A DNA stretch of 62,409 nt, taken from IMG/VR virus record IMGVR_UViG_3300012931_000021, positions 1 to 62,409 of that record; one strand, written 5' to 3'. The translations under genes were made by a program, and so were the position numbers. Below, piece by piece: positions 5,214 through 43,680 of the stretch. The stretch is from a virus (taxonomy: Duplodnaviria > Caudoviricetes). The number at the start of each line of letters is the position of its first letter. Position 1 is the stretch's first letter. The notes under the pieces were generated by a model, which was not told where the DNA came from, did not search any database, and saw nothing but the letters and a program-made list of their open reading frames with translations.

Positions 5214-5927
5214 GTGCGTGCAGTGCCAGAAGCAAGTACGAATAAACAGGAAAGACAATCTAGAATATTAGAAACACTTGAAACAATGATTAATGACGAT
5301 AGGACTCAAAAGTCGGAGCGTGACGCTGCCAAGGCGCGTTGGGAACATATCACAGGAGAGAAATGGACAGGTAAGTGCAAGGCAAGCCAACAGAACACAC
5401 GTCAGAGCGGTACGAATTCTAAGAAATCTCAAAGCAGTTCAGGACCTACAGTTGATGAAAAGTTTTGGGAAGATGTCTTTGGAAAAGGTTTTGGTAAAGG
5501 ATTTAATAGTAAGTCCAACGATAATCCTTTTAAGTATGCTTGGGAACAAAGACAGAAACAAAGAGAATATGGACCAACAAGTTGGGATTATTCTTATGAT
5601 TCAAAGGAATATGATGACCCAAGAACACAGTCTAAGAAAACAGGACGTGATTATGACTTCGGGTTTAATCCGTGTACAGATAAGCAATATGATTATCTTG
5701 ATGCTATTTGTAAGTTCTTCAGGTGGAAGCATCCTGAGCATTGTGACATATCATTTGAAGAAGCTAGCTCTTTTCTTAACAAATATAGCAATGTATTTAA
5801 TGCATTTAAACAAGAAGCTAGGAATGTTACACGTCTTAAAGAATTATTCGAAGCTTTTGGCGTAAAATGGGATATGACGAAGCGTACTTGGGAATGGGAG
5901 CATGAGCGGAAAGGAGGAAGATTATGA
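5214..5927 (+). CDS. Hypothetical protein
   Basis: 237-aa ORF with AAGGAG RBS. Confidence 0.7.
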   Translation: MRAVPEASTNKQERQSRILETLETMINDDRTQKSERDAAKARWEHITGEKWTGKCKASQQNTRQSGTNSKKSQSSSGPTVDEKFWEDVFGKGFGKGFNSKSNDNPFKYAWEQRQKQREYGPTSWDYSYDSKEYDDPRTQSKKTGRDYDFGFNPCTDKQYDYLDAICKFFRWKHPEHCDISFEEASSFLNKYSNVFNAFKQEARNVTRLKELFEAFGVKWDMTKRTWEWEHERKGGRL

Positions 5928-6232
5928 AAGAGATTGGATACTATGTTATGAATTGTGTTGCAGGTTTTATTGTCGGTGGTGTAATTGGATTGTTTCTTTT
6001 GTCTATAATTGGCGTTAGTGGATTGTTTGCAAAAGAACTAAATGATGATAATCATTTAACTAATTCACAATTATCTGTAGCATTAAGAGACCTAGCTGAA
6101 TTTGGAATATGCTATGTAAGCAGCGAAGTGCATGCATGGGATATATCTAGAGCTGTACCCATTACAACCAAAATCGTTAAAATTGATAAACACAATACTT
6201 GGAGAATTGAGGAGGTTAAAAACAATGCATAA
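5924..6232 (+). CDS. Hypothetical membrane protein
   Basis: N-terminal hydrophobic helix; ATGA coupling; GGAGG RBS. Confidence 0.7.
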   Translation: MKEIGYYVMNCVAGFIVGGVIGLFLLSIIGVSGLFAKELNDDNHLTNSQLSVALRDLAEFGICYVSSEVHAWDISRAVPITTKIVKIDKHNTWRIEEVKNNA

Positions 6233-7307
6233 TGATTTCACATACTCACAGATTACCTGTTATAAGCGTTGTCCATTAAAATGGTATTTCAAGTATTTTA
6301 AAATGCTTGAACCAAGAACACGAAGCAAGGCATTCGAGATTGGCTCATATGTACATCATTTGTTGGAACAATTTTACATGTTACCACAAGGTAAGGAAAT
6401 GACAGATGTTGAATTGAAAGAAGCAGTATTAAAAGCTTCTACGGATTACTATGATGAAAAGACAAAGGAAATGTTTGAAGATGAAATCAATGGTGTAGCA
6501 GAAATCCGCTGTGATGCTGAAGAGATTGCAATGAGATACATGGATAAGTATATGGTAGACCATGAAAAATATACTCCTCTATGGGTTGAAAAAGAGTTTG
6601 CCATCAAGATAAGGAATCCACAGGGTAAAAAGACCAAAGATATACTACGTGGAAAATTCGATATGGGTGCTGTTGATGAATTTGATACGGCATGGTTATT
6701 TGAACACAAAACAACTGGTATATCTGTTGAAAATCGTCTTGACACTATAGACCTTGATGAACAACTCGACCTGTATCAGATGGTTGCTGATACAGTACCA
6801 GAAATATTGCCTGACTTTGGAGGTATCATTTTCAATATAATGCGTAAGAAACCGCCTACCATTCCTAGGGTGCTTCAGAAGCCAGCAGGGACGTTAAGCA
6901 GGGCTAAGGATATAGATACCACCTACGATATCTATATGGAAACAATCCACAAACATGGGCTTAATCCAGCCGATTATTCAGATATACTTGGAATCCTGAA
7001 GGAAAAAGGAGATACCTTTTATGGCAGAAAACTTGTTCAAAGAAGTCAGGGACGTATAGACAATGTTCGAAGCGGATTATACTATGCTGTAAAGAAAATC
7101 AAGGATAATGTAAAGTTGTTTGAGAAGAAAAATGACATCAATGTGTTTCACAGGACTCCAAATTTCATGTGTAGCAGGGATTGCAGCTATTGTGAACTAT
7201 GTATAATGCAAAGTAAACATTGTGACTGGGAAGGATACGCAATGGCTTCATTCGACATCAGAGAGACATTAAACCCAGAATTATCCAGTGTAGATGTGAT
7301 GGAATGA
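6225..7307 (+). CDS. PD-(D/E)XK exonuclease (Cas4/AddB-like, Cys-ligated)
   Basis: YSQITCYKRCP, LRGKFD...EHKT, C-terminal CxxxCxYCxxC; GGAGG RBS before ATG 6225. Confidence 0.88.
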   Translation: MHNDFTYSQITCYKRCPLKWYFKYFKMLEPRTRSKAFEIGSYVHHLLEQFYMLPQGKEMTDVELKEAVLKASTDYYDEKTKEMFEDEINGVAEIRCDAEEIAMRYMDKYMVDHEKYTPLWVEKEFAIKIRNPQGKKTKDILRGKFDMGAVDEFDTAWLFEHKTTGISVENRLDTIDLDEQLDLYQMVADTVPEILPDFGGIIFNIMRKKPPTIPRVLQKPAGTLSRAKDIDTTYDIYMETIHKHGLNPADYSDILGILKEKGDTFYGRKLVQRSQGRIDNVRSGLYYAVKKIKDNVKLFEKKNDINVFHRTPNFMCSRDCSYCELCIMQSKHCDWEGYAMASFDIRETLNPELSSVDVME

Positions 7308-7334
7308 ACGTTCATAAGTCCATGTATAATATTG

Positions 7335-8260
7335 TGTACCTCATAGAGATGTGTATTTGCTACCTGGTGTTCCTTGTTTATGGCGGTGACGAAAGTTGCC
7401 GCCTTTACATATGGAGAAATATCTCAATTGGTAGAGTACCGCATACAAATTCTGCGGAGGTTTTTGGTTCAAATCCAAGTTTCTCCACCTATTGTTCTAA
7501 GGTATCTCTTATCGGACAGGGGAGTACCCCTGTAGGTAAGATGGAAGAATGTGAGTCTCGACGCAGTACCAGCTAAGAGCCACCACAAGCTGTCACGTGC
7601 TATAGAGGGATGAGTTGCAGCATTGCTAGCAGACAGTGAGCGTAACTGCAATAAATCTTGTCGGTAATGTGCGTATTACTTACGCTGATACTTGATAAGT
7701 ATGGTTACTCAGTGGTTCTTGACTGAGTTATAATATAAGTGTGATAGCTTTTCCATGACTTACCGGATAGACGGTACACAGCCACGAGTGGCTGTGGAAA
7801 CTGTTGTGTAGATGTGAGTTTTCATACTCTATAATGTCTAGAGGCGAGAAAACGAGTCATACAACAGTTTCCAGAGTCACTCAGTGACTCTTAAGCTGGC
7901 ACAGGTCTGGTGTAGTGACATTATAACACCAGACCTGTGCAGCCTTCATTGAAGTGATTTTACCAGCACTCGAACGCATGACGAGTCCAGTTAGCCTGGT
8001 GAGGGATATAACTATCTCAATATAAAACTTGTATGAGAAGGTTAATTTTACGTGGAAAGAACGTGTTGTTCCAACAAACCGTCGAACAGGTGGAAAGCCT
8101 TTAATCTTTTCATTTTGCTGGTCAGCAGTTGTTGATTTCTTTAATAGGTTACGTACGCCAAGAGTCAAAAGCTCAATCAAGAAATCACAAAAGCGAGTAC
8201 GTTGGAAAAAGCTGATATTTATAAAGGCAGGTCGGGTGGAATACTTTACCTGTCTTTGTA
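7335..8260 (+). ncRNA. Candidate large structured non-coding RNA (~0.9 kb)
   Basis: TATAAT at 7325; more than 15 stems including a GAAA tetraloop, G-U pairs and nested multiloops; closing hairpin 8223-8257; no credible ORF; boundaries approximate. Confidence 0.6.
7413..7487 (+). tRNA. tRNA-like element with a non-canonical 9-nt anticodon loop (identity undetermined)
   Basis: Acceptor GGAGAAA/TTTCTCC, D-loop AATTGGTA, stem CCGCA/TGCGG around TACAAATTC, T-arm TTGG-TTCAAAT-CCAA; followed by CCT, not CCA. Confidence 0.75.
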
Positions 8261-8313
8261 ATATAATCTATATATACAGAATTAGCGTGTATGCAGAGAG
8301 GAGGTGAAAAAGA

Positions 8314-9342
8314 GTGAATGATTTTACAAAATTGATGACCAAAAAATCAATTACAGTTGAGGAAACTCCATATTATGTCAAAATTCTTATCTATGCTATG
8401 TCAGGCATTGGAAAAACAGTCCTGGCAGGTTCAGCTCCTGATTTGTTTATATTTACCTGTGAGAATGGCTTATTAAGTCTCAAGAATCCAAATTTGAAGC
8501 ATATTGTCAATCAGAAGGCGAAAACCTTCCCACTAGACAACTTCATAGAAATGAATGCAATGTATGAGTTTTTATACAATCATTGCATTTTGCGTGATAG
8601 GCTTCAAAAGATTCTGAAACAGTACGCAGGTAAAGCAAAGAAGGATGTCCCAAAAGAAGTTGTTGCAAAAGTATCAAAATTGAAGGATGCAATATGGTCT
8701 ATGGAAAAAGGAAATTCACCAAGAAATGGTGAAGAACCTAGACTATACTATTGTGTTGCAATTGATTCTCTTACGGAGCTTCAAAAACGTAGTATGGATA
8801 GAATACTCGATATCAAACATGGTACTGGTATGGTTGATATGAATGATGCTGGAGATATATGTGCTGAAAATGATGAAACACCTGAAGGTGAAGAGAAACA
8901 GCCATTGCCAATAGCAGAAGATGATACTACACTTATCACTGGATTTGCTGATTTCGAGGTACAGGCAGCAACATTACCTGATTATGGCAGCAATACAAAC
9001 CAGATGAGAAAGTTGGTCAGAGCATTCAGAGACCTTCCTATGAACGTTATATTTACGGCGTTGGAAAGGGAAGTGAAAGATGATGTTACTGGAGAAATGT
9101 TTACCAGACCTGCTTTGACTGAAAAACTTGCTGAAGATGTTCTTGGATATGTTGATATAGTAGGATACTATTATTCAAAACTGGTTCAGGTTGAAGGAGA
9201 ACCAGATAGAATTGATAGAGTGCTTCAAGTTCAACCTTTCAAGAATAGGCAAGCTAAGGACAGAAGTGGTATGTTAGGAAATGGTGTTAAAAATCCAACG
9301 TTTACCAGAATCATGAATTTGATAACTGGTATTGAATCATAA
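8314..9342 (+). CDS. AAA_24 / Sak4-like ATPase (recombination)
   Basis: Walker A YAMSGIGKT, AIDSLTELQ, VIFTALE, AKDRSG. Confidence 0.85.
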   Translation: MNDFTKLMTKKSITVEETPYYVKILIYAMSGIGKTVLAGSAPDLFIFTCENGLLSLKNPNLKHIVNQKAKTFPLDNFIEMNAMYEFLYNHCILRDRLQKILKQYAGKAKKDVPKEVVAKVSKLKDAIWSMEKGNSPRNGEEPRLYYCVAIDSLTELQKRSMDRILDIKHGTGMVDMNDAGDICAENDETPEGEEKQPLPIAEDDTTLITGFADFEVQAATLPDYGSNTNQMRKLVRAFRDLPMNVIFTALEREVKDDVTGEMFTRPALTEKLAEDVLGYVDIVGYYYSKLVQVEGEPDRIDRVLQVQPFKNRQAKDRSGMLGNGVKNPTFTRIMNLITGIES

Positions 9343-15109: not shown

Positions 15110-16102
15110 ATGAATATTTATAATCCTGAAAAACCAAAAACATTGGAAGAAATGTGGGATGACCAGTATCAGTTTAACAAATTAATATTACCATGTGACC
15201 CAGTTGATATGACACCTGAACAAATACAATACTATCATGAGAAGTACACACTACTGCTTAATAAGGAATTATATGAAGTGCTTGATGAGACTGAATTCAA
15301 GCCGCATAGAGCAATAAAGGGTAAGATGGTTAGAAGTAACATGGCAGAGGAATTGATGGATGTGTTTAAATATTGGATGTGTCTTTGTCAGGTACATGGA
15401 TTCTCTGCTAGTGACATGATTGAGGAATATCACAGAAAATCAAATGTAGTTAAACAAAGATACTTTCAGGAAAAAGTAATGTCGTTTGATGGAAAGATTG
15501 CTGGTATTGATATAGATGGTATTTTGGGTGATTATCCGCGCTCATTCGTTGAATTCATAAATGAACAATTGGGTACATCATTTGATTATCGTAATATAAG
15601 GTCGTATAATATTGGTGAAGCACTTGGGTTATCACCTGAAGAATCAGCCAGGCTTAAACATCTATATCGTGAAACTGGACAGAAGCGGTTTATACAAGTC
15701 ATTGAGGGAGCTAAACAATTCCTGGATGAACTAAAATACATGGGATATATTGTGGTATTGTTAACCTCAAGACCATATAAGAAGTACAAGCGTATATATG
15801 GTGATACCCAATACTGGTTGGCTGAGAATAAACTACATTATGATGCAATCCTGTGGGATGATATGAAGGGTGAGAGACTCATACAAGAATTTGGAAGGGA
15901 TAGAGTCGAATTTTTTGTTGATGATGTTGCAGAATTTGCAAATGGTATAAGTAAATTTGGTATGAAATGTTATCTTATAAACAGGTCATATAATCTCGAA
16001 GTACCAATAGGAGAAAATGTACGTCGTATGATGTCATTAAAAGATATTCTAACGGATATACAAATGCCATATCCATGGGTGAGGAGATGTGAAAATGAGT
16101 AA
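15110..16102 (+). CDS. All-alpha NTP pyrophosphatase (dimeric dUTPase/MazG-like) fused to a HAD 5'(3')-nucleotidase
   Basis: KELYEVLDE..FKPH..EELMDVFKY; DIDG, LTSRP, FVDD. Confidence 0.82.
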   Translation: MNIYNPEKPKTLEEMWDDQYQFNKLILPCDPVDMTPEQIQYYHEKYTLLLNKELYEVLDETEFKPHRAIKGKMVRSNMAEELMDVFKYWMCLCQVHGFSASDMIEEYHRKSNVVKQRYFQEKVMSFDGKIAGIDIDGILGDYPRSFVEFINEQLGTSFDYRNIRSYNIGEALGLSPEESARLKHLYRETGQKRFIQVIEGAKQFLDELKYMGYIVVLLTSRPYKKYKRIYGDTQYWLAENKLHYDAILWDDMKGERLIQEFGRDRVEFFVDDVAEFANGISKFGMKCYLINRSYNLEVPIGENVRRMMSLKDILTDIQMPYPWVRRCENE

Positions 16103-16694
16103 AACACAGATAGTACACAAAGATTGTGGTAATTCCATTACGCTTGATGCATTACTTGCTGAAGTTTGTCCCCACTGCAACGGAGCGGTTACGGTTGAAA
16201 ACACGGGCTGCATTAACCTCACAGACCCATTTGGTGGTAACGAACAGGCATATTATACATCCAAGTTTTCTGAAGCAGCAGAATCAATCGTGGAGCTTGC
16301 TAGAGGAGTTAAGACTTCAGACTATGGTGAGACTTGGAGACGTCTTGGACTGAAGGGAATATATGTTAAGATATTCATAAAAGAAGGACGTTTGAATGAA
16401 CTTATCTGGAATAAGGATTGTAAAGGTATAGCAAGTAAAAATGAAAGCATTAAAGACACGCTACAGGATATCGCAGCTTATGCTATGTATGGTATAATTG
16501 CACTAGAGGAAGATAATGTATTTGGGGATGAAGCTAGTGCAGAGTATCTCAATACAATGGTTAAAGGGTTGCTTGAAACCATACAGAGAGTAAGAAAATT
16601 TGATGACAAAGAAAGGATGATGAAGGTTGCAGAACAAATTAAGGATACTATTGACGAGAGTCAGAAAAGAATCATTGAGCGGAAAGATTGTTGA
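16095..16694 (+). CDS. DUF1599 / nucleotide modification-associated domain 1 protein with N-terminal Zn ribbon
   Basis: K.SDYG..W, K..RL, ESIKDTLQDIAAYA; HxxC..CxxC. Confidence 0.75.
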   Translation: MSKTQIVHKDCGNSITLDALLAEVCPHCNGAVTVENTGCINLTDPFGGNEQAYYTSKFSEAAESIVELARGVKTSDYGETWRRLGLKGIYVKIFIKEGRLNELIWNKDCKGIASKNESIKDTLQDIAAYAMYGIIALEEDNVFGDEASAEYLNTMVKGLLETIQRVRKFDDKERMMKVAEQIKDTIDESQKRIIERKDC

Positions 16695-17316
16695 GTTATT
16701 GGATACTCCTGACAATGAAACGCTTGAAGTTCATGCACTGTCATGCACATGGGATATTAGAAAACTTGGAACATATCCCGAAGACCTTGGAACATATGAT
16801 GCTATAATTAATACTGCTGGCATAACACTCAATGAATCAGTATTGCAGCATAATTTGCGTAATGCAAGACAGGTGTTTGACGTGAATGTTATAGGAGCAA
16901 TGACATTGACATCAGAATATGCCAAGTCTAGGGCTGAGTTGTCTCCTGGGAACGGTGGACTTATTGTTCACATCGGTAGCACAGGCAGCAGGAAGGTATT
17001 TACCAATTGTAGTGCATATTGTGCAAGTAAAGCTGCACTGGCACATTATATTCAGTGTGCCGGATATGAATTGAAATCACAAAACATTGTCGTATTAGGT
17101 GTGCATCCTGGAAACATAAAAGGAACAAATATGACTAAGAAAGTTCAACTTGACCTGCAGGTAAATAGAGGTATGTCGCAGGATAAGATATCTGAAATTT
17201 ATAAAGATGCTCATGACCCATATGATGTAGCGACATTCATTATTAATCTTTTAAACATGCCACTACTTGACATTTCCGGCGAGAATTTCTATCTCGGACA
17301 ATCTTGGAAAGGATGA
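16627..17316 (+). CDS. Short-chain dehydrogenase/reductase (atypical cofactor loop)
   Basis: INTAG, VNVIG, IGS, YCASK, HPG; TTG start uncertain. Confidence 0.85.
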   Translation: MQNKLRILLTRVRKESLSGKIVELLDTPDNETLEVHALSCTWDIRKLGTYPEDLGTYDAIINTAGITLNESVLQHNLRNARQVFDVNVIGAMTLTSEYAKSRAELSPGNGGLIVHIGSTGSRKVFTNCSAYCASKAALAHYIQCAGYELKSQNIVVLGVHPGNIKGTNMTKKVQLDLQVNRGMSQDKISEIYKDAHDPYDVATFIINLLNMPLLDISGENFYLGQSWKG

Positions 17317-20698: not shown

Positions 20699-23600
20699 AT
20701 GGCTAGTTCACTTCATACACATAGCACATTCAGCCGTCTAGATGGGTATGGATTACCAGAACAGATTGTTAAACGTGCGCTTGAACTTGGGTTGAAGGGA
20801 GTATGCATAACAGACCATGCATCTACAAGTGCTCATCCTAAACTCGAAATGGCATGTGGTAAGTGGGGTAAGTGCAATGTATGTGGTGAGATTGTTGATA
20901 TGAAGAGTGATGTGCATATGTGTGCTGACCCAACATACCAAACAATAAAACCTTTGTACGGGGTTGAACTATATCTCAATTCAGCCAAAACAAAGAAACA
21001 GAAAAAGAATCACATAACCCTTATAGCTAAAAGTCTTGAAGGGTATAGGAATATTGTTAAGATTGCAAGTATGGCATATCAGGATAACTACTTTTATTAC
21101 TTACCATCAGTGGATATTGAAGACGTCTTTGCAAATAGCAGGGACGTCATTGTCCTCTCCGGATGTATGAATGGTATTGCTTCTGAGCTAATTTCGCAGG
21201 GTAAGCTGGATGAAGCTAGGGAAGCAATCCAGCAGATGGCACAGAACATTGAACATTTCTACGTGGAACTGCAACCATTGGATATACGATATGAAAATGG
21301 TGACTATCATGTTGACAGTGAAATCATTAATCGAGAGCTTATCAAAATTGCACAGGGGTTGAGTCTTCAGGTGGTTGCTACAAATGATGTGCATTACATC
21401 AAAGATGATGAACGCTGGTTACAACATTTCCTTGCTATGGTACATAGAAAGACCAATAGAAGAGATTTTCCAAATGCAATGACTACACGTGGAAGACTTG
21501 CAAACGAAGCAGATTTCAAAGAGTGGCTTAAACCATACAGCAAATATATGGCAAAACAGGCACTGATTAATCAGGATAAGATATGTGACTCTGTGGAAGA
21601 TTTTAAACTACCAAAGGCAGCACCTATGAAATGGAATGATGAATCTGATGAAGAGAGATACAAAATACTTGTTGAGAATGTAAATCAGGGATGGAAGAAA
21701 CGCTGGCAGGGTAAGCAATGTCCTGATAGAAAGAGATATCAGGAACAGGGACAATACGAATTGGAATTAATCAGACAGAAGGGATTTTATGACTATTTCT
21801 TGATTGTTTCTGATATGGTAAAATGGGCAAAAGATAATAACATTCTGGTAGGACCTGCACGTGGAAGTGTCGGAGCGTCAGAAGTATCATGGTTAACTGA
21901 CATAACAGAGATAGACCCAATTCGCTTTAATCTTTTGTTTGAACGATTTCTTGACCCATCACGTTCAGATGCTCCTGATATAGACCTTGATTTTCAGGAT
22001 GATAGACGTGATGAAGTTAAGGATTATATGAAACAAAAATGGGGAGAAAATAAAGTATCAAACGTTGCAGGCTATACAATGTATCATGATAAAGGTTTGC
22101 TGGATGATATTGAACGCTGCTATAATTTTCCTCCAAAGACGTCAGATAGATGGAAAAAACGTCTTATTGAAGAAGGTGGTACAGAGTCACTTGAAGAAAT
22201 ATTATCAACAATTGAAGGTATACCTAGAGGAATGGAACGAATGCTGGGACAATTGCGCGGTTATACTGTTCATGCTGCTGGACTTGTTGTATCATCTGAA
22301 CCATTAAGCGACATAACTACTATCATGGGTGACTCGATAGCTTTGGACAAACGAGATGCTGAATACCTCAATTTGTTGAAAATTGACGTTTTAAGCCTAA
22401 CAACATTGCGTGCCATAGCATTAGCATTGAAGGAAATAAAAATGTCTGTAAATCAATTATACGCACTACCATTAGATATACCAGAAGTGTTCAGAGGTTT
22501 TAAAAAGGGAGATATGCAGGGGATATTCCAATACGCAGGTAGTACAACAAGAAATGTGCTAATCAAAGCTTTGAAGCCATACAATATAGATGATTCTGAT
22601 ATGGACGAATTGTTTTCAGTTGTTACAGATGTTAATACATTGTCAAGACCTGCATCATTAAATAATGGGTCAACCAATAGATACACAAATAATATTGTTG
22701 AAAATATACATCCTATAATTACAATGCATACGCAGGAAACACGCGGTCAAATCATTTACCAGGAACAAATAATGAGAGTCTTGCGTGAAGGTGGACTTGA
22801 TTGGGTTGATGTAGCTGCAGTGCGTAAACTGATGACAAAACATGAAGGCAGGGAAAAGTTGGATGGTATCAAGAAGAGATTCTTTATATTCCTCCAAGAA
22901 ACGTTTAAGAATACACCTGAAGAATGTGAAATAGTATGGAGTAGAATTGGTGATGAAGGTGCGTATGGCTTCAATATAGCGCATTGTGTAGCTTATACAT
23001 TGATTGCATACTATACTATGTGGTTGAAGGTGTTCCATCCGCTTGTTTTCTATTGGTCGAACATGATGATAAATGCAGAGGATGAAGGACTTTTAAGAGA
23101 ATTTGCACAATCAGGTGGTAAGATATTTGAAGTACGGTTTGGAAAGTCAAAGTCTGACTGGTCAATTGATTATGAAAGGAATGGAATACGTGCTGGCTAC
23201 ACTACAATTAAAGGTATAGGTGATAAGACAGCAGAGAAACTCATCAGGTTGCAGGAAGAACACACTAATGCTAATGGTGATATAGATATTGATGTTAGTG
23301 ATTTCCCTGCTAAGGCATTCAATGCGCTTACAGAAATTGGAGCATTTAATGAGGATGATTCTATACACGATTATTTGGGTTTAAATGAGCTCTCATCAAT
23401 GGATACCATAGTATCTGGACGCACCAGAATAATTGACCTGTGTGACCATGATATCGTTACATTGGCAGTTAGGTTAAGCAGTCATAAGGTTAAGTCATTG
23501 AAGGAATATTACAAGAAGAACAATAAGGACTACAGTGAAGTAAGGGATGGTGATAAGGAAAGATATGTTAACATGAAAGTTTATGATGAAACTGGTGAAC

Positions 23601-23770
23601 TTGATGTTACTATATCACGATACAAGATGGATGAACCTGGTTATTATGAGCTTGTTGAAGGATTCAATAGTCAGGATGTTTATGAAATGCTAGTGGAATA
23701 TAACGAAGGAAGAAACAAGGCTTATGTCATGAATATGAATAAGGTGGGAGAAGGTGATATTTGCACATGA
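20699..23770 (+). CDS. dnaE: DnaE-like DNA polymerase III alpha subunit
   Basis: PHP motifs LHTHS.FS..DG, TDH, NDVHY; GPARGS, PDIDLDF, HAAG, LLKID, YGFN.AH. Confidence 0.95.
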   Translation: MASSLHTHSTFSRLDGYGLPEQIVKRALELGLKGVCITDHASTSAHPKLEMACGKWGKCNVCGEIVDMKSDVHMCADPTYQTIKPLYGVELYLNSAKTKKQKKNHITLIAKSLEGYRNIVKIASMAYQDNYFYYLPSVDIEDVFANSRDVIVLSGCMNGIASELISQGKLDEAREAIQQMAQNIEHFYVELQPLDIRYENGDYHVDSEIINRELIKIAQGLSLQVVATNDVHYIKDDERWLQHFLAMVHRKTNRRDFPNAMTTRGRLANEADFKEWLKPYSKYMAKQALINQDKICDSVEDFKLPKAAPMKWNDESDEERYKILVENVNQGWKKRWQGKQCPDRKRYQEQGQYELELIRQKGFYDYFLIVSDMVKWAKDNNILVGPARGSVGASEVSWLTDITEIDPIRFNLLFERFLDPSRSDAPDIDLDFQDDRRDEVKDYMKQKWGENKVSNVAGYTMYHDKGLLDDIERCYNFPPKTSDRWKKRLIEEGGTESLEEILSTIEGIPRGMERMLGQLRGYTVHAAGLVVSSEPLSDITTIMGDSIALDKRDAEYLNLLKIDVLSLTTLRAIALALKEIKMSVNQLYALPLDIPEVFRGFKKGDMQGIFQYAGSTTRNVLIKALKPYNIDDSDMDELFSVVTDVNTLSRPASLNNGSTNRYTNNIVENIHPIITMHTQETRGQIIYQEQIMRVLREGGLDWVDVAAVRKLMTKHEGREKLDGIKKRFFIFLQETFKNTPEECEIVWSRIGDEGAYGFNIAHCVAYTLIAYYTMWLKVFHPLVFYWSNMMINAEDEGLLREFAQSGGKIFEVRFGKSKSDWSIDYERNGIRAGYTTIKGIGDKTAEKLIRLQEEHTNANGDIDIDVSDFPAKAFNALTEIGAFNEDDSIHDYLGLNELSSMDTIVSGRTRIIDLCDHDIVTLAVRLSSHKVKSLKEYYKKNNKDYSEVRDGDKERYVNMKVYDETGELDVTISRYKMDEPGYYELVEGFNSQDVYEMLVEYNEGRNKAYVMNMNKVGEGDICT

Positions 23771-24021
23771 TACCTTACGAAAATAAAATCATATGCTACA
23801 ATTGCATACATTGGGATGGTGACAATCAATATTCTCAGTCTGATGGTAATATTAGCAATGTTTGGGTGAGCATCTGTTCATGTCCTGATAAATGGAGAAT
23901 CAGTGATAAAAACGAAGACCACATCACAGAAGCACAGGATTTTTGTTTGCATTTTGAACCAGTATCAGGTTGGGATGATAATTGGAAAGCAATCTTTGAA
24001 AGGAGGTTGAAACATGAATGA
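23767..24021 (+). CDS. Hypothetical Cys-rich protein
   Basis: CxxCxHW...C...C pattern; ATGA coupling. Confidence 0.6.
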   Translation: MIPYENKIICYNCIHWDGDNQYSQSDGNISNVWVSICSCPDKWRISDKNEDHITEAQDFCLHFEPVSGWDDNWKAIFERRLKHE

Positions 24022-24202
24022 TTTGAATGCTACAAAGAAACCACCATTAGGTATTATACCAAGAGAAAAATGGCTACTTTTACGTTTTGAAGATTTACAA
24101 AGAGCAATAACAGAATATACACAAGCTGGACTTATTGTTAGAATAGAGTGGATTGATGAATACAATAAATTAGCAAAGGAGTTTGCAGAAAATGATAAAT
24201 GA
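24014..24202 (+). CDS. Hypothetical protein
   Basis: GGAGG RBS; KPPLG..P motif. Confidence 0.6.
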   Translation: MNDLNATKKPPLGIIPREKWLLLRFEDLQRAITEYTQAGLIVRIEWIDEYNKLAKEFAENDK

Positions 24203-26489
24203 AAATGCAAAAAAGATACTCGAAAAGCGGTATATAGCTAAGGATGAGAATGGTGTACCTCTTGAGAATATTGATGGTATGTTTCATCGTGTAGCGCATA
24301 ATATAGCAAAAGCTGAAAGTAAAGATAAAGATAAGTGGGAGCAAATATTTTATGATATGATGGTCAATCTTGAATTTCTTCCAAATTCGCCTACACTTAT
24401 GAACGCTGGACGTCCATTAGGACAACTAAGTGGATGTTTTGTGCTGCCAATTGAAGATAATACAGAGAGTATATTTGATGCAATCAAATACAGCGCATTA
24501 GTTCATAAATCTGGTGGTGGCACTGGTTTTAGTTTCTCAAGGTTGCGTCCCAATGGGAGCATAGTCAAGTCAACTGCTGGAGTTGCTTCAGGACCCGTAT
24601 CATTCCTTAAGGTATTCAATGCTGCTACAGAATGTATTAAACAGGGTGGAACAAGACGTGGAGCTAATATGGGTATTCTGCGTGTTGACCATCCTGATAT
24701 ACGCACTTTTATCAATTGTAAGAAAGATAACAAGGAGGTAACCAATTTCAATCTGTCTGTTGGAGTTACTGAGGAATTCATGAATGCAGCACTTCATAAC
24801 GAAACATATGCACTCATTAATCCTGTTAACAAGAAAATTTCTGGATATGAGAATGCAGCAGAAATTTTCCAAATGATTATTGATGGTTCATGGGAAAATG
24901 GAGAACCAGGCATTATATTCCTTGATAGAGTTAACAAAGACAATCCAACACCTGAACTTGGAGAAATAGAGTCAACAAACCCATGTGGTGAACAACCGCT
25001 TCTACCATATGAATCATGCAATCTTGGGTCAATTAATCTTTCTAATTTTGTTACAAAAGACAAGCAAGTAGATTGTAAAAGACTAGCTATAACTGTACAA
25101 AATGCTGTAAGATTTTTAGATAACGTAGTGACTGTAAATAAATTTCCGCTTCAACAGGTAACAGAAATGACGCTAAAGACAAGAAAAATTGGACTTGGAG
25201 TAATGGGATGGGCTGATATGCTCATACAGATGAATATACCATATAATAGTGATAAAGCAATATCTTTAGCAGAAGAAATAATGGAATTCATAAACGAATA
25301 TGCATTGTGTGCATCTTTAGAACTTGCAAAAGAAAAAGGAGCTTACCCTCAATCTAAAAACCATGATGACTATGAGTTCTCACCACGTAACGCAGCACGC
25401 ACAACTATCGCTCCTACAGGTACATTATCAATTATAGCAGACTGTAGCAGTGGTATAGAACCATTGTTTGCTATTGTATATGAACGTAATCAGGCTGATA
25501 TGCGGATGTTAGATGTAAATCCGGAATTTATAAGGATACTTGGAGAGAAGTACACTGTTGAGCCTACAAAAGAGTTGCTGGAGAAAATCCTAAAATCTGG
25601 CACAATCCAAGGTATGGATGAGATACCAAAGGAAGTCCAGGACGTATTTTTAACAGCACATGATATCGCTCCTGAATGGCATATTAAGATGCAGGCAGCA
25701 TTCCAAAGACATGTCAATAATGCAGTATCAAAGACAATCAACTTCAAGCATGATGCTACCAAAGAAGATGTTAAACGTGCATTCATAATGGCTTATACAA
25801 CTGGATGCAAGGGTGTTACTACTTATCGTGATGGTAGCCGTCAAGAACAGGTATTATCTACTGGAGCAAGTTATCAAAAGGACGCGCCAAGACCACTCAA
25901 AGATGTAGTATTTGATGAGGGTGAAATGCGTCAGGAACAGGCAGAATATCTTGAAGAAATGGCAAGGTTGAGTCTTCAGGTGAAACCGCGTCCACGTCCT
26001 AGACCTGACATAACTACTGGGTTTACAGAGAAAGTCAAGATTGGTTGTGGAAATCTTTATATTACTGTAAACTATGATGAACAGGGCATTTGTGAGGTAT
26101 TTACGAACAATGGTAGAGCTGGAGGATGTCCATCACAGAGTGAGGCAGTGTCCAGGCTTGTTAGTTTGGCTTTAAGGACAGGTATTTCCACTGATGCAAT
26201 AATAGAACAACTGAAGGGAATACGTTGTTCATCAACCATAGGGAAGGGTTTAGAATGCCTTTCATGTCCGGATGCAATTGGAAGACTGATTGAGAAGATG
26301 GAAAAAGAAATAGCTGATACTTACGAATTCAAGCCAAATGACTATCATGGTTATGAAAAATCTGAATACGGAAATGACATTTCATATGCTAAAAATATAA
26401 CATCTACCTGTCCAAATTGCAAGAAAACACTTGAACATGAAGGTGGATGTGTAATATGCAGAAATTGCGGTTTCTCACAGTGTAATTAA
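24192..26489 (+). CDS. nrdJ: Class II (B12-dependent) ribonucleotide reductase with C-terminal TSCPD/Zn-ribbon region
   Basis: PNSPTLMNAG, TNPCGEQPL, IAPTGT, SKTIN, TYRDGSR; no beta-subunit gene. Confidence 0.93.
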   Translation: MINENAKKILEKRYIAKDENGVPLENIDGMFHRVAHNIAKAESKDKDKWEQIFYDMMVNLEFLPNSPTLMNAGRPLGQLSGCFVLPIEDNTESIFDAIKYSALVHKSGGGTGFSFSRLRPNGSIVKSTAGVASGPVSFLKVFNAATECIKQGGTRRGANMGILRVDHPDIRTFINCKKDNKEVTNFNLSVGVTEEFMNAALHNETYALINPVNKKISGYENAAEIFQMIIDGSWENGEPGIIFLDRVNKDNPTPELGEIESTNPCGEQPLLPYESCNLGSINLSNFVTKDKQVDCKRLAITVQNAVRFLDNVVTVNKFPLQQVTEMTLKTRKIGLGVMGWADMLIQMNIPYNSDKAISLAEEIMEFINEYALCASLELAKEKGAYPQSKNHDDYEFSPRNAARTTIAPTGTLSIIADCSSGIEPLFAIVYERNQADMRMLDVNPEFIRILGEKYTVEPTKELLEKILKSGTIQGMDEIPKEVQDVFLTAHDIAPEWHIKMQAAFQRHVNNAVSKTINFKHDATKEDVKRAFIMAYTTGCKGVTTYRDGSRQEQVLSTGASYQKDAPRPLKDVVFDEGEMRQEQAEYLEEMARLSLQVKPRPRPRPDITTGFTEKVKIGCGNLYITVNYDEQGICEVFTNNGRAGGCPSQSEAVSRLVSLALRTGISTDAIIEQLKGIRCSSTIGKGLECLSCPDAIGRLIEKMEKEIADTYEFKPNDYHGYEKSEYGNDISYAKNITSTCPNCKKTLEHEGGCVICRNCGFSQCN

Positions 26490-28055: not shown

Positions 28056-28218
28056 GATAGGAAACAACAATATATCGGAGTCATGGTTCAATCTACAGAT
28101 GAAGCGTTGCGGAGTTGACCTTAAATGGTTGTCTAAAATTAAAAGCCATTGGCATACGATACGTCATACTGGGATGCAGATTGCAAAGTTTTGTAAGGCA
28201 AAGCTTCAAAGGGCATAA
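28018..28218 (+). CDS. Hypothetical basic protein
   Basis: GGAGG RBS; ends at terminator. Confidence 0.6.
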   Translation: MMRKLRRSILKARIGNNNISESWFNLQMKRCGVDLKWLSKIKSHWHTIRHTGMQIAKFCKAKLQRA

Positions 28219-28256
28219 AAAAGCACCATTGTTCATATGAGCAGTGGTGCTTTTTT
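28217..28256. terminator. Bidirectional intrinsic terminator
   Basis: A6-GCACCATTG/CAGTGGTGC-T6 between convergent genes. Confidence 0.9.
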
Positions 28257-28263
28257 ATGCCCT

Positions 28264-28524
28264 TTAGCTAGCTTGTCTTCCTACCCATTCAACAAAGTTG
28301 TTGAGCTCCTTTTCTACACGTTCTGCACAGGCATTCATATCGAGATGTCCAAGCTCTATGGCTTCACGGAACATTACGAATGTGGTGACTACAACACCAC
28401 GCTTGTTATAATACTCATGAACACTTCTACCGTTGCCATTATACTCGTATATAGCCTTTGAACGTTCGTATAGGTGCAGTAGGTTGCTATACTTCCTGAT
28501 AGCGTCTTGTTTAGTCTTAATCAT
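28264..28524 (-). CDS. Hypothetical early protein
   Basis: GAAAGGAG RBS before ATG (MIKTKQ). Confidence 0.7.
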   Translation of the reverse strand: MIKTKQDAIRKYSNLLHLYERSKAIYEYNGNGRSVHEYYNKRGVVVTTFVMFREAIELGHLDMNACAERVEKELNNFVEWVGRQAS

Positions 28525-28573
28525 ACAATCATCTCCTTTCATGGATGAAACGCCATCAATGTGGCGTTTCATG

Positions 28574-28696
28574 TCAAGCACTTTTCAGTTTTGCTCCCAA
28601 TGCCGATTTACTATTTCTTGTAAGTATCTTCCTTAAATTACATTCAATCATCAGTTCTTTAACAATCTTATCGATTTCGCTTTGGTCAAGATTCAT
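28574..28696 (-). CDS. 40-aa hypothetical protein (not in ORF track)
   Basis: AAGGAG RBS; MNLDQSEIDKIVKELM... Confidence 0.55.
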   Translation of the reverse strand: MNLDQSEIDKIVKELMIECNLRKILTRNSKSALGAKLKSA

Positions 28697-28872
28697 TGTT
28701 TGTCACTCCTTTCTATTGGTATAACATTTGATTCTGTCAGAAGTACAAGTGCATTTGTTATCAGTCTATCTGCCATAACTATATGTATTTGTGCTTCATC
28801 TGGATGATTCTTTGCTGTTGCTAAAAGTATCTTTGCGTGACTCAGAGTATCAATTATTTTAGTTCTCTTCAT
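28693..28872 (-). CDS. 59-aa hypothetical protein (not in ORF track)
   Basis: AAGGA RBS; ATGA coupling to the next gene. Confidence 0.6.
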   Translation of the reverse strand: MKRTKIIDTLSHAKILLATAKNHPDEAQIHIVMADRLITNALVLLTESNVIPIERSDKQ

Positions 28873-28887
28873 GTTAAATCATTCCTT

Positions 28888-41904: not shown

Positions 41905-43680
41905 ATGGGACTGCTTGAAATACTCGATTCTTTTATTGCTAAGGTTGACCCAGAATGGAAGGCAATACACAGAGTAGCGGATAAGTATCTCGACAAAGTA
42001 GCCAGTGCATATGTTGATGGTTTTGAAGCGTTAAGGAATAGTATTGACGTGGATGCACTGGCGAAGGTGGAGGACATCCGACAGATGCCACAACATATCG
42101 CATGGACTTCCTTCAGTAAAAAGATGGATAGTGCTTATTTGTTGGCAGGATTGATTTTAAGCGACGCAGGTTTAGTAGCGGCAAAGTATATGCCGGAGCA
42201 ATTAAAATTGACTGTAACCAAAGCTGCGAAGCTCAAGATACCAAAGGTTGGACTCACTGGAGAGGGATTGAATTTGGAAGGCAGTTTCAACATGAGAAAT
42301 CCAAGAGCAGTCCAATGGTCAGTAGACCATGTAGGTGAGAACATTCGACAAGCTGATGATGCTACAAAGGCTGGAGTTAATGAAATTATCACACATGCGT
42401 TAAACTTTGGTGGTCATCCCAGAGAGACTGCCAGACAGATACGTCAGTATATTGGACTCACAGAGAATCAGATTAAAGGTATATTGAACTATCAGGCTAA
42501 GCTTGACCAGTCAGGACGTTCAAAGGCACGAGTTGATGCAATGGTTGACAGTAAGATACGTCGTAAGGTACGTGAACGTGCCTTAACAATATCAAGGACA
42601 GAGACAATTGCTGCTTCATGTGCAGGCCAGCAGTTACACTGGGAAGACCAACTTGATAAGGGATATCTTAACAAGATAGATACTATGAAGGAATGGATAG
42701 TAACACCTGATGATAGGCTTTGTCCCATATGCAGTGCAATGGCAGGTCAAAAGGTAGATATAGATGCATCCTTTGACTTTGGAAACAAAGCTCCTCCCAG
42801 ACATCCGCGCTGCAGATGTGCAATAGGATTGGTTGAGAGACCTGGACAGGAACTTGAAGCATATGAACAGTCAGCACAGGGACAGGACTGGTCAAAGATT
42901 GATACACTTGCTGGTATACTTCCAACAATCACACAATTACCAGAACTTGTAACTGCTAATGACTATGAAAAGGGATATACTGTAAATGGATATAATTTAA
43001 CTGATTCAGGTATAGCAGATAAATACAACAAGGTGTTCGAAAACATGACACAAGAAGAAAAACAAGCATTTAAGTATTACACTAAGAAAGGAACTTATAG
43101 TAGGATAAACAGATATCTTAGAGGTGAAACGAGTAAAATTGCCAAAGATGATGCAAAAGCATTAAAGCACATGGAAAGTGGTTTTAGCAAGGTAAAAAGT
43201 CAAATGACACAAGATTCAATATTATATCGTGGATTAGAGCCTACAAGCTTTAAAGCAACCTTTGGAGATTCCATATCAGATATCGATGGTATACTTGAAC
43301 GTTTTTCCAAGACAGGCAAGATTGGTATAGACGACTACAAAACGCTTAATCAATCAATAGGAAAGAAAGTAACAGATACAGGATATGGAAGTGCTACATC
43401 CAATAAAAAATATGAAAAACGCAAATTGTATATGGAAATCCTTGTGGATAAAACTGATGATGGAGTATTACCATTACGTAATTTGTCAGAATTTAAACAT
43501 GAGAGTGAAATCCTACTTAATAAGAATTCACAATACGAGATAGTAGGTTTCAAAGAACGTGTCATGAGATATGAACAAATAATGGATAGTAAAGGTAATT
43601 GGGTTAGAAATCCAGACCTTGATAAAAAGCGTGAATTGGTTGTTGTAGTCAAAAAGTTTGCACAATCTATTATTGAATAG
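41905..43680 (+). CDS. MuF minor head protein fused to a VIP2-like ADP-ribosyltransferase
   Basis: ISRTE, KEW..DDR.CP.C, HPRCRC; YT..Y..INRYLR, LYRG, GSATS, ESEILL. Confidence 0.85.
   Translation: MGLLEILDSFIAKVDPEWKAIHRVADKYLDKVASAYVDGFEALRNSIDVDALAKVEDIRQMPQHIAWTSFSKKMDSAYLLAGLILSDAGLVAAKYMPEQLKLTVTKAAKLKIPKVGLTGEGLNLEGSFNMRNPRAVQWSVDHVGENIRQADDATKAGVNEIITHALNFGGHPRETARQIRQYIGLTENQIKGILNYQAKLDQSGRSKARVDAMVDSKIRRKVRERALTISRTETIAASCAGQQLHWEDQLDKGYLNKIDTMKEWIVTPDDRLCPICSAMAGQKVDIDASFDFGNKAPPRHPRCRCAIGLVERPGQELEAYEQSAQGQDWSKIDTLAGILPTITQLPELVTANDYEKGYTVNGYNLTDSGIADKYNKVFENMTQEEKQAFKYYTKKGTYSRINRYLRGETSKIAKDDAKALKHMESGFSKVKSQMTQDSILYRGLEPTSFKATFGDSISDIDGILERFSKTGKIGIDDYKTLNQSIGKKVTDTGYGSATSNKKYEKRKLYMEILVDKTDDGVLPLRNLSEFKHESEILLNKNSQYEIVGFKERVMRYEQIMDSKGNWVRNPDLDKKRELVVVVKKFAQSIIE

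Follow-up and report, generated by a model that had tools for sequence, protein, structure and literature searches.

Between a nuclease gene and an AAA_24 gene of the uncultivated phage genome recorded as IMGVR_UViG_3300012931_000021 (Duplodnaviria; Caudoviricetes) lies a segment, positions 7413-8262, that we believe to be an accessory cassette carrying a non-canonical transfer RNA (tRNA) and a structured noncoding RNA (ncRNA) of about 775 nucleotides (nt) on a single plus-strand transcript. This reading, to which we assign a probability of roughly 0.6, makes the large RNA a representative of a new class that is analogous to GOLLD and ROOL. The whole stretch of DNA that was analysed, hereafter the window, is the complete-looking record of 62,409 base pairs (bp), which has direct terminal repeats and carries nearly all of its genes on the plus strand. 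The case is built on the fact that the segment is an insert, on its exceptional foldability, on its conservation relative to the flanking genes, on substitutions that are compatible with a plus-strand RNA, and on the lack of any coding or known-family signal.

Large, highly structured RNAs of unknown function are rare among bacteria and their phages. Giant tRNA-linked phage RNAs are a known kind of thing, and the RNA described here would be a new class of it. If this is true, an independent class that shares the genomic habit of GOLLD and ROOL (borne by a phage, directly behind a tRNA and about 0.8 kilobases (kb) long) would point to a recurring solution rather than to two accidents, and would provide a third, sequence-unrelated case for asking what GOLLD-like and ROOL-like RNAs do. 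Useful handles for such work are the natural relatives with and without the cassette, the swappable tRNA module and the sharply delimited conserved core. Should transcription or covariation fail, however, the region would be merely an unusual palindrome-rich moron.

The insert and its junctions

The cassette occupies most of the interval 7308-8313 (1,006 bases) between the plus-strand genes for a PD-(D/E)XK nuclease (6132-7307; Pfam PF12705, E 4.8e-18) and for an AAA_24 protein of the Sak4 type (8314-9342; Pfam PF13479, E 6.4e-21). Loci related through the nuclease were gathered from viral contigs (14 loci), metagenome contigs (38) and genomes (2). The closest relative, L018, shares 80% amino acid (aa) identity with the window in both flanking genes and is devoid of the insert; in this locus the promoter motif, the leader hairpin and everything as far as the ribosome-binding site of AAA_24 fit into approximately 155 nt. 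Homology between L018 and the window ends near 7404-7412 and resumes near 8276. We place the inserted cassette, which comprises the tRNA-like gene, the large RNA, a terminator and a TATAAT box, at 7404-8275 on the plus strand (about 870 nt, boundaries +/- 10 nt).

The insert is likewise absent from all 13 related junctions in which both flanking genes could be matched at an identity of at least 36%. The gap between the two genes measures 155-331 nt in 11 of these junctions and 635 nt in the other two (L007 and L023). In L007, this larger gap holds an open reading frame (ORF) of 147 aa (5246-5689) that, judged by eye, is HNH-like and of the homing-endonuclease type. Because this ORF fills the same intergenic site that holds the cassette in the window, the site is a hot spot for insertions in this group of phages. 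An earlier annotation by a model that had only the letters of the window and a list of its ORFs to work from (the sequence-only reading) had placed a structured RNA of about 0.9 kb inside a recombination module. The location is correct in a positional sense but in no further sense, given that the site is an insertion hot spot.

Nothing resembling the cassette was recovered from the related loci. No tRNA gene was found in 16 of them, the 11 that were scanned against Rfam gave no match, and blastn and nhmmer searches of the insert against 53 related loci returned flank matches to L018 only. Across the whole records of five relatives, the insert yielded only chance matches of 13-20 nt. A transposase, an integrase or repeat boundaries were not seen at the insert.

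The sequences immediately ahead of the insert deserve separate treatment. A promoter-like -10 motif, ATGTATAAT (7322-7330, with TATAAT at 7325-7330), lies upstream of the whole unit on the plus strand. This 9-mer is present in 7 copies in the window when 2.1 would be expected, a count that only 1 of 100 shuffled sequences reaches. Six copies are on the plus strand (7322, 7199, 14432, 19868, 30528 and 37443) and one is on the minus strand (16252), with several situated just upstream of genes, and the motif is probably the main -10 promoter motif of the phage. It is also kept in L018, where CCATGTATAAT is present although the insert is not. Farther downstream is the leader hairpin GGCGGTGAC-GAAA-GTTGCCGCC (7382-7403), a 9-bp stem capped by a GAAA loop whose folding score (z, in standard deviations from shuffled sequences) is -4.3 on the plus strand and -3.1 on the minus strand. 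Its counterpart in L018, GGCGGCA...TGCCGCC, has C-G and A-U pairs in place of the U.G and G.U pairs of the window. Since L018 has this hairpin without everything that follows it, we consider the hairpin to be outside the element. The proposal of one unit starting at 7335, with the hairpin among its RNA elements, therefore had to be revised: the RNA proper would extend from about 7488 to 8262 (about 775 nt), and the promoter and hairpin belong to a conserved intergenic leader.

At the opposite end, the plus strand carries a terminal hairpin at 8219-8261 (z -6.7, compared with -3.2 on the minus strand) in which a G+C-containing stem is followed by a T-rich tail, as in intrinsic terminators. It is the one terminator-like site detected in 7000-8600 (0.6 expected), where the scan reports a plus-strand stem at 8233-8252 with the tail TCTTTGTAAT. 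Next in order are a TATAAT box (8262-8267) at the downstream end of the insert, which was read from the sequence and was missed by a consensus scan, and the ribosome-binding site of AAA_24. The box could restart transcription of the downstream AAA_24/SSB/primase operon.

Could the interval instead be a protein gene that has decayed or that uses an unusual code? ORFs of 90, 92 and 99 aa, the longest in the interval, are present and might be cited in favour of this possibility. However, all six frames of 7300-8320 contain 10-21 stop codons each and include all three kinds. Stop-codon recoding was rejected on the grounds that all three stops are frequent in every frame and that no reassignment opens one. 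Pfam and PHROGs searches with the translations gave nothing better than E 0.07 for any of four ORFs, and five of five translations were absent when looked up exactly in a collection of 15 billion proteins. The 99-aa ORF on the minus strand produced no homologues in a homologue search, and neither did the 92-aa ORF on the plus strand in a full HMMER scan. Moreover, relatives carry frameshifting indels, and a 1-nt deletion at 8064 lies inside the 92-aa ORF in sequencing run X3. We consider a protein-coding origin highly improbable, and the original assertion that the region has no credible gene stands.

Predicted fold of the large RNA

The sequence-only reading had suggested that folding be compared with that of shuffled sequences, and this comparison separates the candidate RNA clearly from control windows. 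For the plus strand of 7488-8262, the minimum free energy (MFE) of -272.7 kcal/mol corresponds to a z of -8.3 (30 shuffles), whereas 11 control windows of the same size located elsewhere in the phage gave values between -2.1 and +2.3. The minus strand of the same segment scores -6.8. Over the longer stretch 7335-8260, the MFE is -318.2 kcal/mol on the plus strand (z -5.9) and -268.1 kcal/mol on the minus strand (z -7.3), based on 20 shuffles per strand. When the region is divided, all 11 sub-regions have lower z values on the plus strand than on the minus strand. The plus-strand fold contains 262 pairs, of which 33 are G.U, and has no A.C 1x1 mismatches, versus 234 pairs, 14 G.U pairs and four A.C 1x1 mismatches for the minus strand. 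What the sequence-only reading described as almost entirely base-paired amounts to pairing of 68% of the 775 nt in the MFE structure.

When windows of 200 nt were slid along the first 38.5 kb, 7701-7900 ranked third and 7801-8000 fifth among 386. The two top-ranked windows, and others that are similarly strong, are explained by terminators or by a gene cluster on the minus strand. Two gene-poor segments that also fold strongly, 28101-28900 and 29601-30100, were rejected as further RNAs because they represent this minus-strand cluster of small genes with its bidirectional terminator.

The predicted architecture on the plus strand is that of a multi-domain body closed by a helix between 7495-7505 and 8197-8207 (pair probability 0.85-0.94). 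Hairpin A (7508-7540) has 13 bp, an AGUA loop, pair probabilities of 0.94-0.99 and a z of -4.9, and it corresponds to the element TCTTATC..ACAGGGG-AGTA-CCCCTGT..GGTAAGA noted earlier, which is located at 7507-7541. It is followed by domain B (7541-7756; z -1.6), which is multi-branched and uncertain in its overall topology, although its hairpins at 7671-7685 and 7707-7728 are robust. Hairpins C (7761-7776) and D (7778-7795) together give a z of -5.4 for 7761-7795. Hairpin E (7796-7872; z -7.1) forms a rod of roughly 28 bp capped by the loop UAAUGUC, and domain F (7873-7961; z -7.9) contains a perfect 15-bp stem formed by 7899-7913 and 7926-7940, which belongs to a run of helices over 7777-7940. 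Domain G (7962-8122; z -2.2), which includes a long hairpin (8033-8113), has a less certain fold and is variable at positions 8063-8072. Domain H (8125-8194) has pair probabilities of 0.83-0.96 and z values of -3.0 on the plus strand versus -1.4 on the minus strand. The robust elements are hairpin A, the two hairpins of domain B just mentioned, hairpins C, D and E, the 15-bp stem of domain F, domain H and the terminal hairpin.

All of the helices listed by the sequence-only reading are present at the positions it gave, including the GAGAAGGTTAA/TTAATCTTTTC helix, the pairing of TTACCAG (7960-7966) with CTGGTGA (7996-8002), and a multiloop closed by TCGGTAA (7661-7667) and TTACCGG (7760-7766) that encloses the hairpins GCGTA/TACGC, ATACTT/AAGTAT and ACTCAGT/ACTGAGT. 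Their presence does not mean that each is part of the preferred fold. Forcing the multiloop costs 7.8 kcal/mol over the free fold and forcing TTACCAG/CTGGTGA costs 2.3 kcal/mol, and because of these costs the topology of domains B and G is tentative. Alternatives for these branched domains, including the two forced helices, lie within 0.1-8 kcal/mol.

This distribution of folding strength might also be expected of a transcript made up of separate small elements: a tRNA trailer bearing hairpins for processing or for RNase III, small RNAs, and a long cis-acting leader or attenuator that is closed by a terminator and gates read-through into the AAA_24/SSB/primase operon. The strongest signals come from the local hairpins A, C/D, E and F and the terminator (z -4.9 to -7.9) and not from domains B and G, no variation supports the long-range helices, competing structures are close in energy, and the unit, whose last features are a terminator and then TATAAT, lies directly upstream of the operon. 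However, the cassette must be unnecessary for regulating this operon because relatives express it without the cassette. Furthermore, the conserved core spans about 340 contiguous nt and includes loops and linkers, which is more than processing hairpins need, and the high pair probability of the closing helix favours a single body. A collection of small elements consequently seems to us rather unlikely.

Conservation and substitutions among carriers of the cassette

A k-mer index lists 12 sequencing runs from 10 studies as holding the stretch or a part of it. Two runs (X1 and X2) hold it whole and may be its source, and metagenomes from landfill, groundwater and freshwater hold 10-30% of its words. 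Diverged copies of the insert were found at the same place in contigs from four other metagenomes (X3, X5, X6 and X8), which were compared with the window over 6900-8700 at a likeness of at least 80%. In X3, a contig of 1,197 nt spans 7583-8654 and thereby links the RNA region to AAA_24 in this run as well; the share of the 31-mers of the stretch present in X3, 0.30, translates to an estimated identity of about 96% over the insert.

Identity varies along these contigs in a mosaic manner. The core of the RNA (7681-8017) is 98-99% identical, the ends of the cassette are 85-89% identical, and the flanking genes are 80-86% identical. For example, the core differs at 2 positions in 152 nt in X5 (7866-8017) and at 2 in 122 nt in X8 (7681-7802). 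The nuclease gene has 81 differences and 14 gaps in 515-522 nt in X3 and X5, and the AAA_24 gene has 34 differences in 175 nt in X5, 35 differences and 2 gaps in 203 nt in X6, and 14 differences and 2 gaps in 101 nt in X8. Outside the core, X5 has 26 differences and 7 gaps in the 216 nt of the 5' part of the RNA (7480-7695) and 29 differences and 8 gaps in the 309 nt of its 3' part (8088-8396). The non-coding leader (7331-7380) has at least 8 substitutions and at least 8 indels in X3 and X5. The core of the RNA is thus far more constant than both the neighbouring genes and the neighbouring non-coding DNA.

Ahead of this core is the tRNA-like gene (7413-7487, plus strand), which matches positions 1-71 of the Rfam tRNA model RF00005 with 52.6 bits (gathering score 29; E 1.9e-08) and is the only Rfam family above threshold in the whole window. 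Its anticodon loop has 9 nt (UACAAAUUC) rather than the canonical 7 nt with U33. In addition, the D stem begins with a U.U at its base, and the gene does not encode the CCA. ARAGORN calls no tRNA at this location with default settings, and with relaxed settings (a 2-nt intron or a lowered threshold) it reports either 'Leu(caa) with a 2-nt intron' or 'Phe(aaa)'. A tRNA with such a loop could read frameshifted or odd codons, could serve as a decoy for anticodon nucleases, or could be a mere processing handle. The parts of the literature available to our search contained nothing on expanded anticodon loops in phages that matches this element. The module varies among the carriers of the cassette. 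Upstream of 7458, X8 has an ordinary 7-nt loop, CUUGCAC (anticodon UGC); X6 has a different T-arm before 7481; and in X3, 170 other letters replace 7462-7542, where hairpin A appears to be replaced as well. The tRNA module is thus swapped among relatives ahead of the same large RNA, and the tRNA-like gene is separate rather than part of one RNA, as had been supposed.

Positions are given for 40 of the 292 substitutions and 12 of the 37 indels, and the 14 substitutions and 2 indels among them that fall in the RNA were mapped on the plus-strand fold. Six of the six listed substitutions in helices whose pair probability is 0.88 or higher leave a standard pair in place on that strand. Within the 15-bp stem, X3 combines 7910 G>A with 7929 C>U, a compensatory exchange of G-C for A-U, and X5 has the change at 7929 alone, which yields G.U. 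Two further changes in domain F, 7930 C>U and 7935 C>U, also produce G.U pairs. In hairpin E of X3, 7866 A>G turns U-A into U.G and 7808 G>A turns G.U into A-U. If read from the minus strand, four of five stem events would give A.C. Loops account for the changes at 7676, 7679, 7680 (a deletion), 7785 and 7825, and a linker for that at 8021: the loop 7676-7680 changes from UUACU to GUAA in X3 and X5, 7785 C>U is found in the loop of hairpin D in three runs, and 7825 lies in an internal loop. This pattern would be expected of an RNA read from the plus strand. The few data at hand, in the form of G.U-preserving and compensatory changes, favour the earlier view that G-U pairs point to RNA-level selection, specifically on the plus strand.

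The same substitutions bear on the possibility that the palindromes act as DNA. A cluster of inverted repeats might function as an accessory origin, as a loading site for primase or recombination proteins, or as a set of hairpin promoters, and might have been brought into the replication/recombination module with the tRNA. Such an element would explain why the minus strand folds far beyond chance (z -6.8 to -7.3), why many of the stems are perfect palindromes (15, 9, 9 and 9 bp) and why the surrounding genes are of the nuclease, Sak4 and primase-helicase types. The pair-keeping changes on the plus strand, most of which would create A.C on the other strand, argue against it, as do the excess of G.U pairs on the plus strand (33 versus 14) and the promoter and terminator signals on that strand. 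Nor can the cassette be the essential origin, because relatives replicate without it. We judge a DNA-level function to be improbable.

Alternatively, the cassette might be a selfish or neutral non-coding passenger (a moron or the remnant of a mobile element) that has spread recently, with a core that is similar owing to recent exchange and a structure that is without function for the phage. It is true that the same site holds a homing-endonuclease-like gene in another relative, that the tRNA module is swapped between relatives (with loose ends at 7458 and 7481) and that identity is mosaic, as given above for the two ends and the core. However, neutral sequence would not fold 8 standard deviations beyond shuffled sequences, and neutrality would not confine stem substitutions to those that preserve pairs. 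The failure to see transposase, integrase or repeat boundaries speaks against a mobile origin, and the divergence at the two ends of the cassette, which roughly equals that of the genes on either side, suggests that it has resided there for a long time. In our estimation a functionless passenger is quite unlikely.

Several observations nevertheless temper our preference for a structured plus-strand RNA. Domains B and G barely beat shuffled sequences, the minus strand also folds well, and most stems are perfect Watson-Crick inverted repeats of the kind that a DNA-level element would also have. Of the 292 differences and 37 indels, 14 substitutions and 2 indels make up the comparative evidence. 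Some of these changes (8063, the deletion of 8064, 8066 and 8072) break predicted pairs, albeit in a helix of low confidence (probability 0.27-0.60). All six stem substitutions are transitions, compared with four of the eight outside robust stems, where the loops and linker have T>G, C>A, T>A, C>T and T>C and the weak hairpin has G>A, T>A and C>A. Under a null model that permits only transitions, the chance that all four informative events would keep pairs is estimated at about 0.06, in a small sample with partial listing. In addition, contigs of one run need not derive from one phage strain, and the high identity of the core could stem from recent exchange of segments among related phages. 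No RNA run is among the 12 runs that the k-mer index lists as holding the stretch. Finally, no homologue was found outside this phage group: blastn searches were negative in 50,697 phage records (at E <= 1e-5 and at E <= 1) and in 72,556 plasmids, and six exact or degenerate sequence patterns were unmatched in viral contigs, as was one in genome contigs.

Known RNA families and a possible mode of action

It had been stated that the RNA could not be assigned and might be a new class, with a scan against Rfam named as the way to find out. We scanned the whole window, repeated the scan of 7250-8350 permissively (E <= 10) and searched separately with the GOLLD and ROOL models, and the large RNA matched no known family. 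The 11 matches of the permissive scan are the tRNA, 6S-Flavo and sub-threshold hairpins of the microRNA type or other kinds. GOLLD (RF02032; gathering score 150 bits) gave no match at E <= 10 in either the 1.1-kb scan or the whole record, where five candidates were scored and none matched. ROOL (RF03087; gathering score 99.1 bits) also gave no match at E <= 10, although the dedicated search is weak on its own since control genomes were unmatched too. Group I and group II introns, RNase P, tmRNA, OLE, HEARO and small ribozymes had no Rfam match at E <= 10, and ARAGORN found no tmRNA.

The similarity to 6S-Flavo (RF01685) merits a comment. Positions 8015-8123 align end to end with this 108-nt model, and the matching segment is a long hairpin that contains internal loops. 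The score of 35.1 bits (E 0.0028 in the 1.1-kb search) compares with a gathering score of 85, and the match goes unreported in the search of the whole window. GGAGG ribosome-binding sites, which are strong in the window, speak against a Bacteroidota host. Because of the low score and these sites, identity with 6S-Flavo was rejected and the match was treated as a chance resemblance. The phage encodes a sigma factor, which would make a 6S mimic that sequesters RNA polymerase an attractive idea, but the score is far under the cut-off. Other routes to the host gave no clue: aligning the nuclease in genome contigs produced just 2 distant matches (23-27% identity), and the top matches of a terminase search were 54% identical and came from phages of unrelated hosts.

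GOLLD and ROOL offer the closest analogies. GOLLD, a structured RNA with a length of about 800 nt, occurs in phages and prophages, typically by or downstream of tRNA genes; its 5' part is less conserved, its conserved part lies further 3', and its function is unknown (bioRxiv 10.1101/2024.12.08.627333; PMC5737381). ROOL has a mean length of 581 nt, is ornate, resides in phages and prophages, often near tRNAs, and has no known function or protein partner (bioRxiv 10.1101/2024.12.08.627333; PMC5737381). Kretsch et al. (bioRxiv 10.1101/2024.12.08.627333) have recently reported that both assemble into cages consisting of RNA alone. The RNA of the window fits the context described for the two classes, namely 580-800 nt, phage-borne and beside tRNAs (bioRxiv 10.1101/2024.12.08.627333; PMC5737381). 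The sequence-only reading had pointed to this similarity of scale, and correctly so, in that an RNA of about 775 nt adjoins a tRNA in a phage.

Context alone does not confer membership, even where a tRNA is directly upstream in a phage record and the length is about 775 nt versus about 800 nt for GOLLD. The candidate lacks a match to the GOLLD covariance model and has no detectable homology to that RNA, and its conserved part is central (about 7680-8020) rather than in the 3' half. It resembles ROOL in size, ornate structure, phage or prophage residence and proximity to tRNAs, but it has no match to the ROOL model and consists largely of long, nearly perfect hairpins. As in phage tRNA islands, a tRNA lies directly upstream on the same strand, a transcript is probably shared and the module varies among relatives, but the 9-nt anticodon loop is atypical and the RNA that accompanies the tRNA greatly exceeds in size the small stable RNAs that are usual in such islands. 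No matching class of large phage RNA was found in the available parts of the literature; the main text of PMC10690425 concerns candidate RNAs with a mean length of 67 nt, and the supplementary candidate lists of PMC10690425 and PMC5737381 could contain the motif.

If the cassette does encode a tRNA and a large RNA together, its expression might proceed as follows. Transcription would start at the conserved ATGTATAAT and pass through the leader hairpin, and host RNase P and the 3' tRNA-processing nuclease would excise the tRNA, so that the large RNA would begin near 7488. The RNA would end at the terminator-like hairpin and would adopt the closed multi-domain body described above, with a nearly constant core formed by hairpins C to F. 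Like GOLLD and ROOL, it would presumably act in trans during infection as a stable body.

The apical loops of hairpins E and F are complementary, and the RNA may self-associate through them. The complementarity is perfect over 9 nt (7830-7838 with 7917-7925), although we estimate that about one such pair would arise by chance in 775 nt. A kissing-loop test on the loops of the MFE structure was not significant, since 1784 of 2000 shuffled sequences reach the observed value; in the MFE structure, some of loop F is masked by a weak helix of 3 bp. A more elaborate proposal would make this RNA the founder of a third class of giant phage RNAs linked to tRNAs, with no sequence relationship to GOLLD or ROOL. 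Its nearly invariant core (C to F) would drive self-assembly of RNA alone through the loops of E (7832-7838) and F (7917-7923), the tRNA module, also in its version with the 9-nt anticodon loop, would be a covalently delivered cargo or partner, and the assembly would help the phage in translation or in the evasion of host defences that target tRNA or RNA. We view this elaboration as speculative and, taken as a whole, unlikely.

Beyond the cassette, the phage encodes, in addition to the sigma factor and the proteins of the flanking genes, an SNF2 helicase, a DUF669 protein, a primase/MCM-type helicase, a terminase and a portal protein. The sigma factor, a block of genes for nucleotide metabolism and modification, the polymerase and the reductase are distributed over 2341-2895, 15110-17316 and 20699-26489. 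The block includes a MazG/NT5C fusion, DUF1599, two short-chain dehydrogenases and ThyX; the polymerase is of the DnaE type and the ribonucleotide reductase is class II-like. The Mu F-type head-morphogenesis protein encoded at 41905-43680 bears a C-terminal ADP-ribosyltransferase domain (PF03496, E 1.7e-23) and is possibly a modifying enzyme delivered by the virion. The region 28203-30430 interrupts the mostly plus-strand genome with a cluster of small minus-strand genes (about 28264-30332), at the edge of which is a long bidirectional terminator hairpin (28203-28268; z -9.2 in the sliding scan). Repeats of the GGGACTAnAGTCCCATTTTT type occur in this region at 29705-29731, 30375-30401 and 30398-30424, together with a 48-nt repeat at 29662-29709 and 30354-30401, and these are probably the operators of a regulatory switch.

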